Positions 1 to 4,509 of a stretch of 21,983 bases of DNA are shown here, one piece after another (position 1 is the first letter of the stretch; each line of letters starts with the position of its first letter). A program made the translations under genes and the position numbers. Below the pieces are notes generated by a model that saw only the letters and a program-made list of their open reading frames with translations, had not been told where the DNA came from and did no database searches. The DNA comes from a virus. The stretch is from the UHGV virus genome UHGV-1604392; one strand, written 5' to 3'.

Positions 1-1119
1 ACATTGAACACGCTATTCGTCGATAAAAACTTGCGTTTTCACGGCCTGATGCAGGCATTTTCCCGCACCAACCGTATTTATGATGCAACTAAAACCTTCG
101 GTAATATCGTCACTTTCCGGGATCTGGAACGCTCAACTATTGATGCCATAACGCTGTTTGGTGACAAAAACACCAAAAATGTGGTGTTAGAAAAGAGTTA
201 TACAGAGTATATGGAAGGCTTTACTGATGCTACTACTGGTGAAGCTAAACGCGGCTTCATGACAGTAGTTTCAGAACTGGAACAACGGTTCCCTGACCCT
301 ACCAGTATTGAAAGTGAAAAAGAGAAGAAAGACTTCGTTAAACTGTTTGGCGAATACCTGCGTGCCGAGAACATCCTGCAAAACTATGATGAATTTGCCA
401 CGCTAAAAGCCCTGCAACAAATCGATCTTAGCGATCCTGTTGCGGTAGAAAAATTCAAAGCAGAACATTATGTGGATGATGAAAAGTTCGCTGAATTGCA
501 AACAATTCGTCTCCCTGCTGATCGCAAGATTCAGGATTATCGTTCTGCCTATAACGATATTCGCGACTGGCAGCGCCGTGAGAAAGAAGCTGAGAAAAAA
601 GAGAAATCAACCACTGACTGGGATGACGTAGTTTTTGAGGTCGATTTGCTGAAGTCTCAGGAAATAAACCTGGATTATATCCTTGGACTGATTTTCGAAC
701 ACAACAGACAAAATAAAGGCAAGGGCGAAATGATCGAAGAGGTCAAACGCTTAATTCGTTCAAGCCTAGGGAACCGTGCTAAAGAGGGCCTGGTGGTCGA
801 TTTTATTCAGCAAACGAACCTGGATGATTTACCGGACAAAGCCAGCATCATTGACGCATTCTTTACGTTTGCTCAACGCGAACAGCAACGTGAAGCAGAA
901 GCATTGATAAAAGAAGAAAATCTCAATGAAGATGCAGCAAAACGCTATATTCGCACGTCTTTAAAACGCGAATATGCCACCGAAAATGGCACAGAATTAA
1001 ACGAAACATTACCAAAACTTAGTCCGTTGAATCCGCAATATAAAACGAAAAAACAGGCAGTTTTCCAGAAAATCGTCTCGTTTATTGAGAAGTTTAAAGG
1101 CGTAGGCGGAAAAATATAG
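1..1119 (+). CDS. hsdR: Type I restriction enzyme R subunit (HsdR), C-terminal part; the 5' end lies upstream of the window
   Basis: Frame is open from the window edge to TAG at 1117-1119. An SF2 helicase motif VI-like QAFSRTNR sits near the start of the fragment, followed by a long helical C-terminal region as in HsdR proteins. Confidence 0.75.
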
Positions 1120-1198: not shown

Positions 1199-1285
1199 TT
1201 ACCCATGAGCGACGATGCCGCCAAAAGTGATAGAGAACAGCCAGAAATAGATCGCGGCCATAATGATTTTGAATGCCGTGCTCAT
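1199..1285 (-). CDS. 28-aa hydrophobic peptide (MSTAFKIIMAAIYFWLFSITFGGIVAHG), single predicted transmembrane helix; below the 60-aa ORF-track cutoff
   Basis: ATG at 1285-1283 preceded by AGGAG 8 nt upstream; TAA stop at 1201-1199; lies downstream of a C1-operator-like site and a promoter-like TTGCTC-17nt-TAAAAC. Confidence 0.4.
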   Translation of the reverse strand: MSTAFKIIMAAIYFWLFSITFGGIVAHG

Positions 1286-1313
1286 ATTTTCAGCTCCTGT
1301 GATTGATTGGATA

Positions 1314-1344
1314 CATGCCGCGCCTTGCGGCATGTTTTTATTTT
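1314..1344 (+). terminator. Rho-independent terminator (8-bp GC stem catgccgc/gcggcatg, loop gcctt, then TTTTTATTTT) for plus-strand transcripts
   Basis: Stem and T-tract read from sequence; the same hairpin lies in the 5' leader of the minus-strand peptide mRNA. Confidence 0.55.
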
Positions 1345-1367: not shown

Positions 1368-1384
1368 ATATTTATTAGAGCAAT
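1368..1384 (-). promoter_or_regulatory. P1 C1-repressor operator-like site (reverse complement ATTGCTCTAATAAATaTT, 1 mismatch to the 17-bp consensus as I recall it)
   Basis: Motif match; near-identical 27-bp module recurs at 9421-9447. Confidence 0.6.
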
Positions 1385-1890
1385 TATTGCTGGTGAAGAA
1401 GCGCATTTTCATACTCCCTGACCATTAACGTAAGCACGCCGTGCCTCCTGAAAACACGCGCCACTTCAATCTTATCTTCCAGCGCGAACGCGATTTTACT
1501 TAGACCAATTTTCTTAAGGAGATCAATCTTTGCTGGGCCGTCATTTCTGTCATCGGTGGCAGGACGCATAGATAGCAAAGGCTCAGCCCCGTTTGTTACG
1601 TACTTCCGCAGCCAGGCTCGTGTTTTATCCCTTGCGATCTCACAGCGCCCGGTTACAAACCAGACCGTGTAAACGTTAAATAACTGGCGCACCATATCAA
1701 TAACTGGAGTGATGGGAGTATCGGTGTCACAGGCGAGATTAAACTCGTTCCAGTCCTTTGTTAATGCACCTTTACCTAGTGGCGGAAGCAAATGCAGTCT
1801 GTCTTCAGTTGCCTCTGATATTGTTCCATCAATATCGACTATGACGATATACGGACGTTCCTGGTGTGCGTGTTTATTGAAAATACTCAA
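1384..1890 (-). CDS. HAD-superfamily polynucleotide 3'-phosphatase (phosphatase domain of T4 polynucleotide kinase type), no kinase domain
   Basis: Motifs IVIVDIDGTIS (DxDGT), CDTD, WFVTGR and DDR, in the order I recall for the T4 Pnk phosphatase domain; TTG start at 1890 with GAGGAGG 5 nt upstream. Confidence 0.75.
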   Translation of the reverse strand: MSIFNKHAHQERPYIVIVDIDGTISEATEDRLHLLPPLGKGALTKDWNEFNLACDTDTPITPVIDMVRQLFNVYTVWFVTGRCEIARDKTRAWLRKYVTNGAEPLLSMRPATDDRNDGPAKIDLLKKIGLSKIAFALEDKIEVARVFRRHGVLTLMVREYENALLHQQ

Positions 1891-1909
1891 ATGCCCTCCT
1901 CATTGGACC

Positions 1910-1943
1910 AAAAAAATGCTGGTGGGCGCACTCCACCAGCATT
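1910..1943 (-). terminator. Rho-independent terminator on the minus strand (10-bp stem atgctggtgg/ccaccagcat followed by U7), between the 420-aa gene and the phosphatase gene
   Basis: Perfect 10-bp inverted repeat with a 7-nt loop; the A7 run at 1910-1916 gives U7 after the stem on the minus-strand transcript. Confidence 0.6.
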
Positions 1944-1962: not shown

Positions 1963-3225
1963 TTAGCGGACGTAAATAGTGCCGCCGTTCTCTTTTTCCC
2001 ATGCATCGCTAAGTGCATAGCAAACATCAAGAAGTCTTCTTGCCGCTGTTTCCTCTAAACCCAATTCGACAACCAACTGCTCATGACGGCGGGTAACCAC
2101 ATCAAACAGGGTATGCAGCCCTTTAGTTGCCAGATCATCAATGAATTCCGGTTCGAACGGCAGCTCTGCATCTGCCAACATAACCTCTTGCGCCCACTCA
2201 ACTCGACGGACCAGTTCCGGGCGGCGGCTTTCCATCTCTTTACAGATCAATTCATGGAAGAACTCTACCCAACCTTCCGGCTGGAACTCGCGGAAAATTG
2301 CCAACGGCTGGAAGTTTGGCATCAACCATTCGTTGATTCGGATATCAATGGCATAGCCCATGTCGCAGCAGAACTGATAAGCAAAGTCCAGCTTAGAAAC
2401 GATATAAGGACGCTCGTTATTGAACTCTTTAGGCGATGAGATCCCATAAGCCAGGAGGCGCGGGAAGAAGGAGATTTGCCCTAACGTCGGATGAAGTTTG
2501 CTTGCAGGGAAACGGCGCTCAGTAATGCCATACATTTCCTTCTTGAGCGTCGCAAATTTGGCATTCTCATTAACCAGCGCGGTAACCTCTGCTTTTTTAT
2601 TAGCAAATGCCACGCGCGCCTCGCTTGCATCTTTAATAGTTTTTTTGAGCTGTTGGTTAAGGTCGGCGACCTGCTTACGCAGTTCCTGTCGCTCGCTTTT
2701 AGCTTTGTTATAGCGTTTCTCAAGGTTAAAAGGATCAAGTTTCATGATCTCTTTATATTGAGATTTTAGCGTTGAAATCTGTGAGTTCCGCAGTTCAACC
2801 ATCGCGGTCATTTCATTGAGTTTTGTTTCCAGCTCAATGCTTATACGTTCGGCATTATCAGCACGCTGGTTGGCGTCATGCATCGCATCGTCGATCGCGT
2901 CCTGTTGCTGGCGTTTCAAATGTTCAATTTGCAGCTGAAGCTCTTCAATTTCTTTACCCTTCAGACCAAGATCCAACTGCATATTTTCAGCTGCATCTAC
3001 CAGGGAGTTATGGCTATCAGCTTCTGCGTTATAAACATCAATAAGCTGTGCGTGAAGCATCTCCGCTGACTGAACCGCATTATCAAAAAAACGTGCTGTG
3101 AGGTCATCACAACTAACGCGGCGTTGCGCGGCCCGGATGTTCTGGATAATGGCCGGGATACCGGCATTCAAGACATCAGGGATAGATACATTTTCGATTG
3201 ATTGCTTTTGTGCTGAAGTGCTCAT
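1963..3225 (-). CDS. 420-aa protein: long N-terminal coiled coil (about residues 30-225) plus C-terminal globular domain of unknown function
   Basis: Long ORF; heptad-rich E/K/Q/L sequence; its ATG lies 1 nt after the stop of the upstream 72-aa ORF (tight coupling). No catalytic motif recognised. Confidence 0.75.
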   Translation of the reverse strand: MSTSAQKQSIENVSIPDVLNAGIPAIIQNIRAAQRRVSCDDLTARFFDNAVQSAEMLHAQLIDVYNAEADSHNSLVDAAENMQLDLGLKGKEIEELQLQIEHLKRQQQDAIDDAMHDANQRADNAERISIELETKLNEMTAMVELRNSQISTLKSQYKEIMKLDPFNLEKRYNKAKSERQELRKQVADLNQQLKKTIKDASEARVAFANKKAEVTALVNENAKFATLKKEMYGITERRFPASKLHPTLGQISFFPRLLAYGISSPKEFNNERPYIVSKLDFAYQFCCDMGYAIDIRINEWLMPNFQPLAIFREFQPEGWVEFFHELICKEMESRRPELVRRVEWAQEVMLADAELPFEPEFIDDLATKGLHTLFDVVTRRHEQLVVELGLEETAARRLLDVCYALSDAWEKENGGTIYVR

Positions 3226-3226
3226 T

Positions 3227-3445
3227 TCAAAGTTCCGTATTAGCTTGTGCTTCGGTCATTTTTCCTAAGTATGAAGGAGGAAGGACTACGCAATTTGTAT
3301 CCAGTCCCTCACCTATGGCAGCCTGTAAAATTCTGGCTAAGGTGAGTCTCTTGTTGCGATACCTGGTGATGACATGCCTGATACCGCCGGTCGGCGTAAC
3401 AAAGGCGATCAGCCAGTAGTGATATTTCCGTCGGAATGGCCACAT
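3227..3445 (-). CDS. 72-aa basic small protein, translationally coupled to the 420-aa coiled-coil gene
   Basis: ORF begins right after the operator/palindrome region and ends 1 nt before the next start; function unknown. Confidence 0.55.
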   Translation of the reverse strand: MWPFRRKYHYWLIAFVTPTGGIRHVITRYRNKRLTLARILQAAIGEGLDTNCVVLPPSYLGKMTEAQANTEL

Positions 3446-3459
3446 AGTGCACCCTTTAG

Positions 3460-3476
3460 ATTGCTCTAATAAAAAA
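3460..3476 (+). promoter_or_regulatory. C1-operator-like site (ATTGCTCTAATAAAaaa)
   Basis: 14/17 match to the operator consensus; inverted relative to the site at 3509-3525. Confidence 0.45.
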
Positions 3477-3500
3477 CGTGATGAGTGTACATCACGTTTT
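3471..3500. repeat. Perfect palindrome AAAACGTGATG-agtgta-CATCACGTTTT (11-bp arms) between two inverted operator-like sites
   Basis: Read directly; could be a bidirectional terminator (GC stem flanked by T-runs on both strands) or a dimeric protein-binding site. Confidence 0.5.
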
Positions 3501-3508
3501 AAAAATAT

Positions 3509-3525
3509 GGAATTATTAGAGCAAT
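3509..3525 (-). promoter_or_regulatory. C1-operator-like site (reverse complement ATTGCTCTAATAAtTcc)
   Basis: Motif match immediately upstream (on the minus strand) of the 72-aa/420-aa operon. Confidence 0.55.
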
Positions 3526-4228: not shown

Positions 4229-4509
4229 GCTGCACCATCACCTTTCACTTTCATCAATGTCAGGTTTCCGCAAAATACGGCACCAGTGTCGATATACTGC
4301 TGATTCCAGAATGTCTTCGGGCTTTTCACCGGAGTGTGACCAAAGATAAAACGATCTGCGCCCGAAATTTCGCCACCAATATCATCCATCGAATCACTGA
4401 TACGCTCGCGCGCCCAGACAACGTTGAAAAGCGGCACCTCCTTACCGAATTGATATTCATTATCCGGATAGTCGGCATGGGCTATAACCTTTTTTCTGCC
4501 CTTCAGCCT
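4225..4509 (-). pseudogene. ppp: C-terminal half of a lambda-type Ser/Thr protein phosphatase (metallophosphatase); frame open without a usable start, N-terminal catalytic motifs absent
   Basis: Translation ...[23 protein letters not shown]...[15 protein letters not shown]...[21 protein letters not shown] closely matches the lambda phosphatase C-terminus as I recall it; the frame opens only after a TGA at about 4510 and overlaps the end of the upstream ORF. Confidence 0.6.

Follow-up and report, generated by a model that had tools for sequence, protein, structure and literature searches.

Pap of a P1/P7-like phage-plasmid, a single-domain PNKP-type phosphatase encoded behind a conserved terminator-like hairpin

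The gene pap of phage P1 (P1_gp094, YP_006560; AAQ07559 in P7) was named for 'P1 acid phosphatase' in 2004, and its product is now called '3'-phosphatase' in RefSeq. The older name goes back to the class B/C acid phosphatases such as AphA and e(P4), which combine the HAD fold with small caps. Kinase-less phosphatases of the PNKP type are known from eukaryotes, where yeast Tpp1 and plant ZDP unblock 3'-phosphate DNA ends for the host polymerase and ligase, and these DNA 3'-phosphatases provide a precedent for an enzyme such as Pap. The best match to Pap in the PDB, by sequence and structure alike, is Pnkp1 from Capnocytophaga gingivalis (PDB 4xrp), a kinase-phosphatase of the Pnkp1-Rnl-Hen1 RNA repair complex that works with a ligase and a methyltransferase, partners which are absent here. 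Pap also shares its Pfam family and fold with the C-terminal domain of T4 polynucleotide kinase-phosphatase (Pnkp or PseT; PDB 1ltq, 2ia5, 5uj0). For T4 Pnkp the roles of D165, D167, S211, K258 and D278 in catalysis have been described, RNA>p is its physiological substrate, and 3'-mononucleotides, e.g. 3'-TMP, are hydrolysed as well (PMC3592404).

The window analysed here, a stretch of 21,983 nt (UHGV-1604392), is a P1/P7-like phage-plasmid, and one of its ORFs is pap, which belongs to the core accessory genes of such elements. The nucleotide sequence is 98% identical to P1, P7 and SJ46, where it is annotated as pap or 3'-phosphatase, and the identical 507-nt coding sequence, with the same 168 codons' worth of protein and the same TTG start, is called by PGAP and in the P1/P7 records. 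The P1/P7 neighbours pmgS, pmgR, Op86 and Op88 are likewise present, and the protein cluster 99% identical to Pap comprises 2547 member sequences. Pap is therefore re-identified here, as it has been catalogued in P1 since 2004 with a family assignment already in RefSeq. The original prediction, which did not name the ORF as this long-annotated gene, had described a 168-aa ORF with a TTG start and a GAGGAGG ribosome-binding site, all of which are present at 1384..1901; the strand, which it left unstated, is the minus strand for all of the following features:

1384..1890, minus strand: pap coding sequence of 507 nt, 168 aa, TTG start (ORF call, translation)
1895..1901, minus strand: Shine-Dalgarno site GAGGAGG, 4 nt before the pap TTG (read from the sequence)
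1910..1943, minus strand: intrinsic-terminator-like hairpin between pmgS and pap, with an 11-bp stem, a 7-nt loop and a T7 run

The start codon lies at 1890-1888, with an in-frame TGA four codons further 5' (1902-1900). As neither ATG nor GTG precedes the DIDGT motif (D19), TTG is the sole canonical start of pap. It is also kept in two diverged loci (L011/L012), there preceded by AAGGAGG or GGAGG, so that TTG behind a strong Shine-Dalgarno site represents a conserved weak start.

Pap is a cytoplasmic single-domain enzyme from the PNKP branch of HAD (DxDxT) phosphatases and has no kinase module. A profile search, as suggested with the original prediction, led to Pfam PF25109 (HAD_PNKP) with 46.5 bits against a gathering cut-off of 27.6 (E 5e-12), the match covering Pap residues 13-158 and profile positions 1-139 of 143, and to PHROG 415/505, both 'polynucleotide kinase' families. 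Pnkp1 and T4 Pnkp were the PDB sequence matches, and a Foldseek search with the AlphaFold model of Pap (pLDDT 88.7) gave 4xrp, 5uj0 and 2ia5 as its top matches (E 7e-8 to 1e-5). Phage 'kinase/phosphatase' proteins were matched in a BFVD fold search with TM up to 0.80, and searches of NCBIfam profiles and of PADLOC with Pap gave no match. The best profile, sequence and fold matches are T4 Pnkp and Pnkp1 and not the unrelated sugar-phosphatase subfamilies that would have spoken against the original prediction. Identity to the T4 phosphatase is about 20-24%, and Pap differs from the bifunctional T4 enzyme in lacking the N-terminal P-loop kinase: the phosphatase domain begins at residue 13 of 168, and no Walker A/P-loop motif (GxxxxGK[ST]) was found in the Pap sequence, in agreement with what had been predicted. 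Unlike the setting of T4 Pnkp, the P1-like phage has no partner RNA ligase.

Both the HAD motifs and the CDTD/DDR signature that had been noted before could be located and aligned to T4 Pnkp. The former are DIDGT (19-23), VTGR (79-82), K121 and E138-D139, and CDTD (54-57) and DDRND (113-117) align to T4 C184-D187 and D250-D254, with an insert between motif I and CDTD that is about 16 residues longer in Pap than in T4 Pnkp. Among 55 Pap homologues D19, D21, T23, R31, D57, T80 and R82 (aligned to T4 D165, D167, T169, R176, D187, S211 and R213) as well as R109, D113, R115, D117, K121 and D139 (T4 R246, D250, R252, D254, K258 and D278) are invariant. Every T4 active-site residue compared has a counterpart in Pap; at the position of T4 D277 this is a glutamate, E138, which is nearly invariant. 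Four of these T4 residues, R176, D187, R213 and D254, are family-specific, essential and located outside the HAD motifs, and their equivalents in Pap, R31, D57, R82 and D117, belong to the invariant set. With pN of 0.12-0.31 for pap while synonymous sites are saturated, the Pap family is under strong purifying selection.

The name 'acid phosphatase' would suit an enzyme that acts on free 3'- or 5'-NMP/dNMP instead of polymer ends and thereby salvages nucleotides or adjusts their pools while the phage grows lytically. In Foldseek the PNKP matches are indeed followed by class B/C acid phosphatases and nucleotidases (AphA, e(P4), a deoxyribonucleotidase-like protein), a weak match to Pfam Acid_phosphat_B is recorded for Pap and for many relatives, some relatives adjoin dUTPase, UDG, ThyX or dGTP-diphosphohydrolase-like genes, and hydrolysis of 3'-TMP by T4 Pnkp would fit as well (PMC3592404). 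However, the Acid_phosphat_B match (PF03767) reaches only 14.9 bits against a gathering cut-off of 27, and the four PNKP-specific residues R31, D57, R82 and D117 are invariant. In addition, AphA and e(P4) are secreted nucleotidases, AphA being periplasmic, whereas the N-terminus of Pap, read directly, has no signal-peptide-like stretch, and the small T4-like insert after motif I, judged from alignment and model, would suit macromolecular substrates. A nucleotidase role is thus unlikely, and 'acid phosphatase' is a poorer label for Pap than '3'-phosphatase'. Polynucleotide and nucleotide substrates are nevertheless not separable by sequence, because T4 Pnkp also cleaves 3'-mononucleotides.

By homology to T4 Pnkp, D19 would attack the terminal phosphomonoester to give an aspartyl-phosphate, with D21 as general acid/base, T80 and K121 holding the phosphate and Mg2+ bound by D139 together with D19. 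On DNA or RNA ends Pap would in this way remove the 3'-phosphate, and probably 2',3'-cyclic phosphate as well, and leave a 3'-OH. As P1 has neither a 5'-kinase nor a ligase of its own, the product would go to host enzymes that need a 3'-OH, which for DNA ends would be polymerase and ligase and for RNA ends 3' exonucleases, poly(A) polymerase or the CCA-adding enzyme. Such a hand-off would make Pap an end-unblocking accessory enzyme instead of a complete heal-and-seal system. An end-unblocking 3'-phosphatase in a C1-repressed operon, dosed by terminator read-through and the TTG start, is the best explanation of the locus, to which we assign a probability of roughly 0.6.

Control of pap can be traced to the upstream end of its transcription unit, for which the following features were found:

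1963..3225, minus strand: pmgS (shtB in P7), encoding a 420-aa coiled-coil protein and preceding pap within the operon
3227..3445, minus strand: a feature whose basis includes PMC9024508
3460-3476, plus strand: C1 operator Op86b (operator pattern search, and P1 annotation by offset)
about 3496-3524, minus strand: predicted promoter PpmgR, flanked or overlapped by Op86a and Op86b
3509-3525, minus strand: C1 operator Op86a (operator pattern search, and P1 annotation by offset)

The operator pattern search gave seven matches where 0.09 were expected, and pap closes the C1-repressed unit pmgR-pmgS-pap; with Op86a and Op86b upstream of this unit, the induction-controlled operon proposed for the phosphatase is supported. 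The gene pmgS is nonessential, and a Pfam search with PmgS returned no family; weak PADLOC matches of PmgS to LmuB most likely reflect coiled-coil noise.

The hairpin between pmgS and pap is formed by two arms (1915-1925 and 1933-1943) with 11 perfect pairs, one more than the 10 bp first described for the terminator directly ahead of pap, and is followed by the T7 run at 1916-1910. Its stem combines an 8-bp G/C-rich core with three A-T pairs, six of the pairs being G-C in total; the predicted energy is -17.7 kcal/mol, and the 86-nt region folds at z = -3.4. The hairpin is kept across about 80 P1-like loci and in the two diverged lineages L011/L012. In the P1-like loci the loop occurs in at least five variants, whereas the stem has one change only, a G-U pair that retains pairing, and an alignment of four sequences with L011/L012 showed one compensatory change from G-C to A-U and two wobble changes, a covariation that rests on a small number of independent lineages. 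Hairpin, T-run and TTG thus persist in lineages with saturated synonymous sites, and conservation of the intergenic region between pmgS and pap (68%) equals that of coding DNA. Not every P1-like locus combines terminator and TTG: in a diverged one (L010) the ATG of pap overlaps the upstream stop codon and there is no terminator. A long-range stem between the conserved GUUACAGUGUCAC block and the Shine-Dalgarno site and start codon, which would hide the ribosome-binding site, was seen in a single-sequence fold only; this pairing is not retained in L011/L012, the consensus fold showing the terminator alone, and the idea was dropped.

Expression data come from public P1vir RNA-seq (preprint), in which pap lies about 2.0-2.7 log2 below pmgS and 2.8-3.4 log2 below pmgT, both as fold changes that are not length-normalised. 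At 10 min pap is induced alongside the C1-controlled early genes, when late genes are silent, and in an hfq mutant its change parallels that of pmgS and runs counter to that of pmgT. Attenuated read-through, as originally predicted, is therefore plausible from the conserved hairpin, U-run and TTG, the one compensatory change and the dip of pap in RNA-seq, the latter again in unnormalised fold changes. After inactivation of C1 most transcripts from PpmgR would stop at the hairpin, and the fraction reading through would be translated from the weak TTG, resulting in a low early dose of Pap.

Alternatively, the hairpin might merely end or stabilise the pmgR-pmgS transcript and pap might have a promoter of its own that escaped recognition. 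Hairpin and U7 run do resemble a strong terminator, and a conserved GTTACAGTGTCAC block just 5' of the hairpin is loosely similar to the -22 box (AAGTTACTT) of LPhot, a late promoter of P1. This similarity, however, extends to only about five of eight specified positions, a sequence scan found no sigma-70-like site between pmgS and pap, and the P1 and P7 annotations have no promoter there. Early induction while late genes are silent and the joint response of pap and pmgS in the hfq mutant also argue against a separate promoter, which we regard as distinctly unlikely. A specific candidate, an Lpa-dependent late promoter before the hairpin, was rejected, as TAGTTACAG fits about 5/8 of the -22 box of LPhot/LPpmgL and is unannotated in P1/P7.

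For the biological role of the enzyme, a counter-defence task in RNA repair had been proposed: like T4 Pnkp, Pap would heal tRNAs that anticodon nucleases such as PrrC, RloC or colicins have cut to 2',3'-cyclic-phosphate or 3'-phosphate ends. Family and active site are common to both enzymes, RNA>p is the T4 substrate, pap is expressed early, one relative (L126) is two genes away from an RNA ligase and another (L006) lies near a Tad6-family anti-defence gene, and phosphatases of another fold serve phages as counter-defences. But healing would occur here without sealing: tblastn with five kinase domains, one RNA ligase and one DNA ligase as queries revealed no homologue of a 5'-kinase or of a ligase for RNA or DNA (all E > 0.1) in the targets (the window, L173, L003, L001 and L002), which comprised the window, all but about 15 kb of the closest plasmid (about 81 kb scanned) and P1/P7 segments. 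Neither a kinase nor a ligase is annotated in the closest plasmid and the P1/P7 segments, and an exonuclease homologue was not found in the same element. The window itself holds only the 3' end of hsdR. In the type IC cassette of a relative, hsdM-hsdS-hsdR, neither prrC nor another extra gene is annotated, and the roughly 120 bp that separate hsdS and hsdR leave little space for one. E. coli RtcB needs a 3'-phosphate or cyclic phosphate to join ends; Pap would block this repair route because the ends that RtcB requires lose their phosphate. Furthermore, pap is dispensable for plaque formation with no phenotype in laboratory plating, and neither PADLOC nor NCBIfam matches Pap. Repair after anticodon nucleases is thus not borne out, with no kinase, ligase or prrC found and a gene that is dispensable in the laboratory, and is to be considered very unlikely.

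In phages, PNKP-type phosphatases usually stand alone, with a length of about 150 aa. The median length of 139 representative Pap relatives is 154 aa, about 5-7 of them having two domains with an N-terminal kinase-type part (five with a recognisable P-loop), and in diverse viral loci 73 of 77 phosphatase ORFs encode 100-215 aa and the other four 288-319 aa. JK_61P of Escherichia phage Jk06 (157 aa) and a PTXU04 'phosphatase' (164 aa) show the single-domain fold of Pap (TM 0.78-0.84). Stand-alone members from other phages share 28-37% identity with Pap and occur in different contexts with no shared neighbour: across 80 diverse viral loci no conserved partner gene was found, the largest neighbour cluster (9/77) coming from near-identical phages, and ligases and nucleases were only sporadic when 149 neighbour clusters were tallied by Pfam family. 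Apart from the RNA ligase in L126, enzymes acting on nucleic-acid ends beside relatives are a Rv2179c-like 3'-5' exonuclease (L010, L095) and an ATP-dependent DNA ligase (L150), and these neighbours count in favour of the end-unblocking 3'-phosphatase. Most relatives have no informative neighbour.

Kinase-less PNKP-type phosphatases form 3200 clusters at 50% identity and are spread over thousands of phage lineages. In the literature, neither enzyme assays for Pap or any stand-alone phage member nor reports on the in vivo action of kinase-less phage enzymes were found. For pap itself our analysis adds little beyond confirming the better family label of a known gene; P1 is genetically tractable, and work on Pap in this phage could clarify what the whole stand-alone family does. 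It is conceivable, if highly improbable, that these proteins are self-sufficient counter-defence enzymes, not pieces of a repair pathway, which erase phosphate marks made or sensed by host immunity at 3' termini. Candidate marks would be the 3'-pyrophosphate put on tRNA CCA ends by toxSAS/CapRel-type toxins, or 2',3'-cyclic-phosphate RNA fragments serving as damage signals, and after their removal host CCA-adding or decay enzymes might restore or clear the RNA. Terminator and TTG would then act as a dosage limiter for an enzyme harmful in excess. Early expression, dispensability, the lack of a kinase or ligase partner and the occasional anti-defence or 3'-exonuclease neighbours are compatible with such a function. 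The 'phage phosphatases' described as counter-defence in a 2026 preprint are Macro-domain ADPR-1''-phosphatases in NARP1 operons and are unrelated to Pap.

Downstream of pap, the window departs from P1, as seen from these features:

1368-1384, minus strand: C1 operator Op88, abutting the pap stop codon (operator search, P1/P7 annotation)
1412-1383, minus strand: promoter-like PpmgT, opening the next transcription unit (P1/P7 annotation, sequence scan)
1313..1335, plus strand: second hairpin of 9-10 bp, with a T-run on the plus strand only (sequence scan)
4..1119, plus strand: 3' part of a type IC hsdR, EcoR124I-like residues 668-1038 (E 1e-239 to 2w00)

In P1 Op88 is followed by the pmgT-humD block, whereas the window has a small membrane ORF (1199..1333, minus strand) and then hsdR, which is convergent with pap and takes the place of that block. 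The window also lacks two blocks of 2.0 kb and 9.2 kb that complete P1-like plasmids have and that contain, among others, essential tail genes and ban. These deletions could be taken to mean that pap is a decaying or inactive remnant of a probably defective element, but the ORF is intact, its protein is 99% identical to the common P1-family form, all catalytic residues are present and the family is under strong purifying selection, so that decay is almost certainly not the explanation. The second hairpin sits between the Op88 promoter and the small membrane ORF and, judged from its sequence, might halt transcripts that come from the hsdR side and would run into pap in antisense direction.

The phosphatase ORF was predicted from sequence alone to start with TTG behind a GAGGAGG ribosome-binding site and a perfect 10-bp terminator hairpin. 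All of these elements are real and lie on the minus strand, the hairpin being perfect with a stem of 11 bp instead of 10.

1384..1890 (-): pap ORF, 168 aa, TTG start
1901-1895 (-): ribosome-binding site GAGGAGG, 4 nt ahead of the pap start codon
1915-1925 and 1933-1943 (-): arms of the hairpin directly upstream of pap, whose perfect 11-bp stem encloses a loop of 7 nt and is accompanied by a T7 run

TTG is the sole canonical start, because the frame, closed by a TGA stop four codons upstream, contains neither ATG nor GTG ahead of the DIDGT motif; the identical CDS is called in P1, P7 and PGAP annotations. The 2.1 kb surrounding the ORF are 97-99% identical to P1, P7, SJ46, RCS47 and other Punavirus records, where it is named pap and described as either 'putative P1 acid phosphatase' or '3'-phosphatase'; the latter is also the NCBI name of its cluster at 99% protein identity (2547 sequences). 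What was noticed is thus a catalogued gene found again, its operators and family also being on record before. Conservation of the terminator and TTG start and the RNA-seq dip at pap, both described below, are candidate small additions.

The assignment to the PNK 3'-phosphatase family held in profile and structure searches. Pap scored 46.5 bits against Pfam HAD_PNKP (threshold 27.6) and 14.9 bits, below the threshold of 27, against Acid_phosphat_B; PHROGs places it in 'polynucleotide kinase' families, and the only significant natural-protein matches in a PDB sequence search were Pnkp1 (4xrp) and T4 Pnkp (1ltq, 5uj0). With the AlphaFold model (55 homologues, pLDDT 88.7), Foldseek ranked Pnkp1 and the T4 phosphatase domain at the top, followed by the acid phosphatases AphA and e(P4), and the best BFVD matches were phage 'kinase/phosphatase' proteins, many of 150-250 aa. 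These second-tier acid phosphatase matches, and the fact that 3'-TMP is a substrate of T4 Pnkp, would suit a mononucleotide phosphatase, a reading that we consider unlikely but the strongest of the alternatives. As predicted, the 168-aa sequence contains no P-loop. Residues of the T4 enzyme were located in Pap from the HMMER alignment.

Residues of Pap and their T4 Pnkp counterparts
D19: D165
D21: D167
R31: R176
C54-D57: C184-D187
T80: S211
R82: R213
D117: D254
K121: K258
E138, D139: D277, D278

In T4 Pnkp, D165 is the nucleophile and D167 the acid/base, the phosphate is held by S211 and K258, and Mg2+ is bound by D165 and D278 (PMC3592404). The matched Pap residues are invariant among the 55 homologues save C54, D55, T56 and E138. 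Non-synonymous divergence of pap is 0.12-0.31 where synonymous sites are saturated, so Pap is under purifying selection; that pap is an inactive remnant is highly improbable.

The proposed induction-controlled operon was likewise recovered, with seven occurrences of the C1 repressor operator consensus in the window against 0.09 expected.

3509-3525: operator Op86a, bracketing with Op86b the predicted promoter PpmgR upstream of pmgR and pmgS
3460-3476: operator Op86b
3227..3445: pmgR, downstream of predicted PpmgR
1963..3225 (-): pmgS, downstream of predicted PpmgR
1368-1384: operator Op88, abutting the pap stop codon and controlling the next promoter

This layout puts pap at the end of an early unit under repressor control. 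PmgS (1963-3225, minus strand) has no Pfam family; its residues 70-229, a predicted coiled coil, gave weak PADLOC matches to LmuB, an SMC-like Lamassu protein, most likely through coiled-coil similarity only. In a P1vir infection RNA-seq preprint (Table S1 of 10.64898/2025.12.28.696737), pap was induced at 10 min alongside C1-controlled genes.

Log2 fold changes in P1vir infection of the wild-type host, not normalised for gene length
pmgR: 7.96 (10 min), 9.36 (20 min)
pmgS: 8.21 (10 min), 10.04 (20 min)
pap: 5.52 (10 min), 8.08 (20 min)
pmgT: 8.93 (10 min), 10.84 (20 min)

The drop at pap, with recovery at pmgT, is consistent with partial termination and a new promoter further on; transcription of pap from a promoter of its own rather than by read-through seems unlikely. 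In an hfq-mutant host at 10 min, pmgS was up 2.4-fold and pap 3.8-fold, with pmgR down to 0.49 and pmgT to 0.30 of wild type (same preprint); an Hfq effect on the pmgS-pap region, perhaps at the U-rich terminator, is a possibility.

The hairpin has a predicted energy of -17.7 kcal/mol. Two diverged phage-plasmid lineages (L011, L012; Pap 72-78% identical) share the order pmgR-pmgS-(72 to 75 nt)-pap; their spacer shows 68% identity, the same level as coding DNA, and they retain the hairpin through one compensatory G-C to A-U change and two wobble changes, together with the U-run, the TTG start and a GGAGG site. The loop comes in at least five variants among about 80 close P1-like loci, against a single change in the stem arms, which preserves a G-U pair. 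An exception to the layout is the more distant P1-like locus L010, which lacks the terminator and whose pap starts with an ATG that overlaps the stop codon before it. Two extra genes (L010 7135-8001) separate pmgS from pap there, one encoding an exoribonuclease.

An exhaustive HMMER search with the phosphatase gave 3200 clusters at E <= 1e-3. The 139 non-trivial top matches had a median length of 154 aa and included about 5-7 proteins of two domains in which the C-terminal half holds the phosphatase, five of them with an N-terminal P-loop; across 80 diverse viral loci, 73 of 77 phosphatase ORFs encoded 100-215 aa. Stand-alone is thus the normal form of Pap-type phosphatases. A jumbo-phage comparative survey described 'PKN-HAD' family HAD phosphatases as usually kinase-fused, besides a separate stand-alone family (PMC7824862).

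No evidence was found for a complete RNA-repair function. Repair of anticodon-nuclease damage, the role originally suggested, has a precedent in T4, but no kinase, ligase or target nuclease was found: tblastn with Pnk kinase (five domains), RNA ligase and ATP-dependent DNA ligase against the window, about 81 kb of the closest complete plasmid and P1/P7 segments gave only E > 0.1, none of these targets carries a kinase or ligase annotation, and the hsdM-hsdS-hsdR cassette of a relative leaves little room for prrC, and none is annotated there. As pap is also nonessential by CRISPRi, and by deletion as cited there (PMC10695390), we regard this role as improbable. The main text of the P1 virion proteome paper does not mention pap. 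Gene neighbours of Pap relatives are not conserved, and the informative ones are nucleic-acid-end enzymes in every case: an Rv2179c-like DEDD 3'-5' exoribonuclease (E 3e-50) in the pmgS-pap interval of L010, a diverged phage-plasmid of the P1 type whose Pap is 58% identical; a weaker Rv2179c-like match (27.3 bits, cut-off 27) directly after the homologue in the unrelated locus L095; an adjoining ATP-dependent DNA ligase in L150; and an RNA ligase two genes away in L126. The best reading is a 3'-end-unblocking enzyme, which would act on DNA, RNA or free nucleotides as candidate substrates and whose 3'-OH product would be taken up by host enzymes. What such kinase-less phosphatases, very common in phages, do in vivo could conveniently be tested in P1. 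A single case links a stand-alone homologue to anti-defence: in a lambdoid-like metagenomic phage (L006, 8666-9268), the third gene downstream of the homologue belongs to the Tad6 family (Thoeris anti-defence).

Compared with the complete P1-like plasmid locus L003, the window lacks two blocks, with junctions at 4484-4488 and about 5416. The first (2.0 kb) comprises most of ppp, all of pmgP/pmgO/pmgN and part of pmgM, leaving stubs of 70 aa (ppp) and 116 aa (pmgM), and the second (9.2 kb) genes 26, 25 and 7, more baseplate genes, ban/dnaB, three tRNAs and a TerB-like gene; pmgL is thereby fused to the dmt region. These junctions occurred in 0 of 5426 complete E. coli genomes, and the element is probably a defective deletion derivative.

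On the other side of pap, an hsdR fragment (4-1119, plus strand) is nearly identical to residues 668-1038 of EcoR124I HsdR (type IC). Relatives carry a complete hsdM-hsdS-hsdR cassette (L003 7702-13119) between phd/doc and pap, in place of the P1 pmgT-humD block, and, according to the P1 record, the sequence next to pap and doc corresponds to that bordering the EcoDXXI and R124/3 hsd loci; these 'plasmid' R-M loci thus seem to be carried on P1-like backbones. Two further features follow Op88.

1199..1333 (-): small hydrophobic ORF after the Op88 promoter, 28-44 aa, MSTAFKIIMAAIYFWLFSITFGGIVAHG, annotated 'membrane protein' in SJ46
1313-1335: 9-10 bp hairpin preceding this ORF, with a T-run on the plus strand only

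Together they are the conserved leader that opens the variable region beyond pap.
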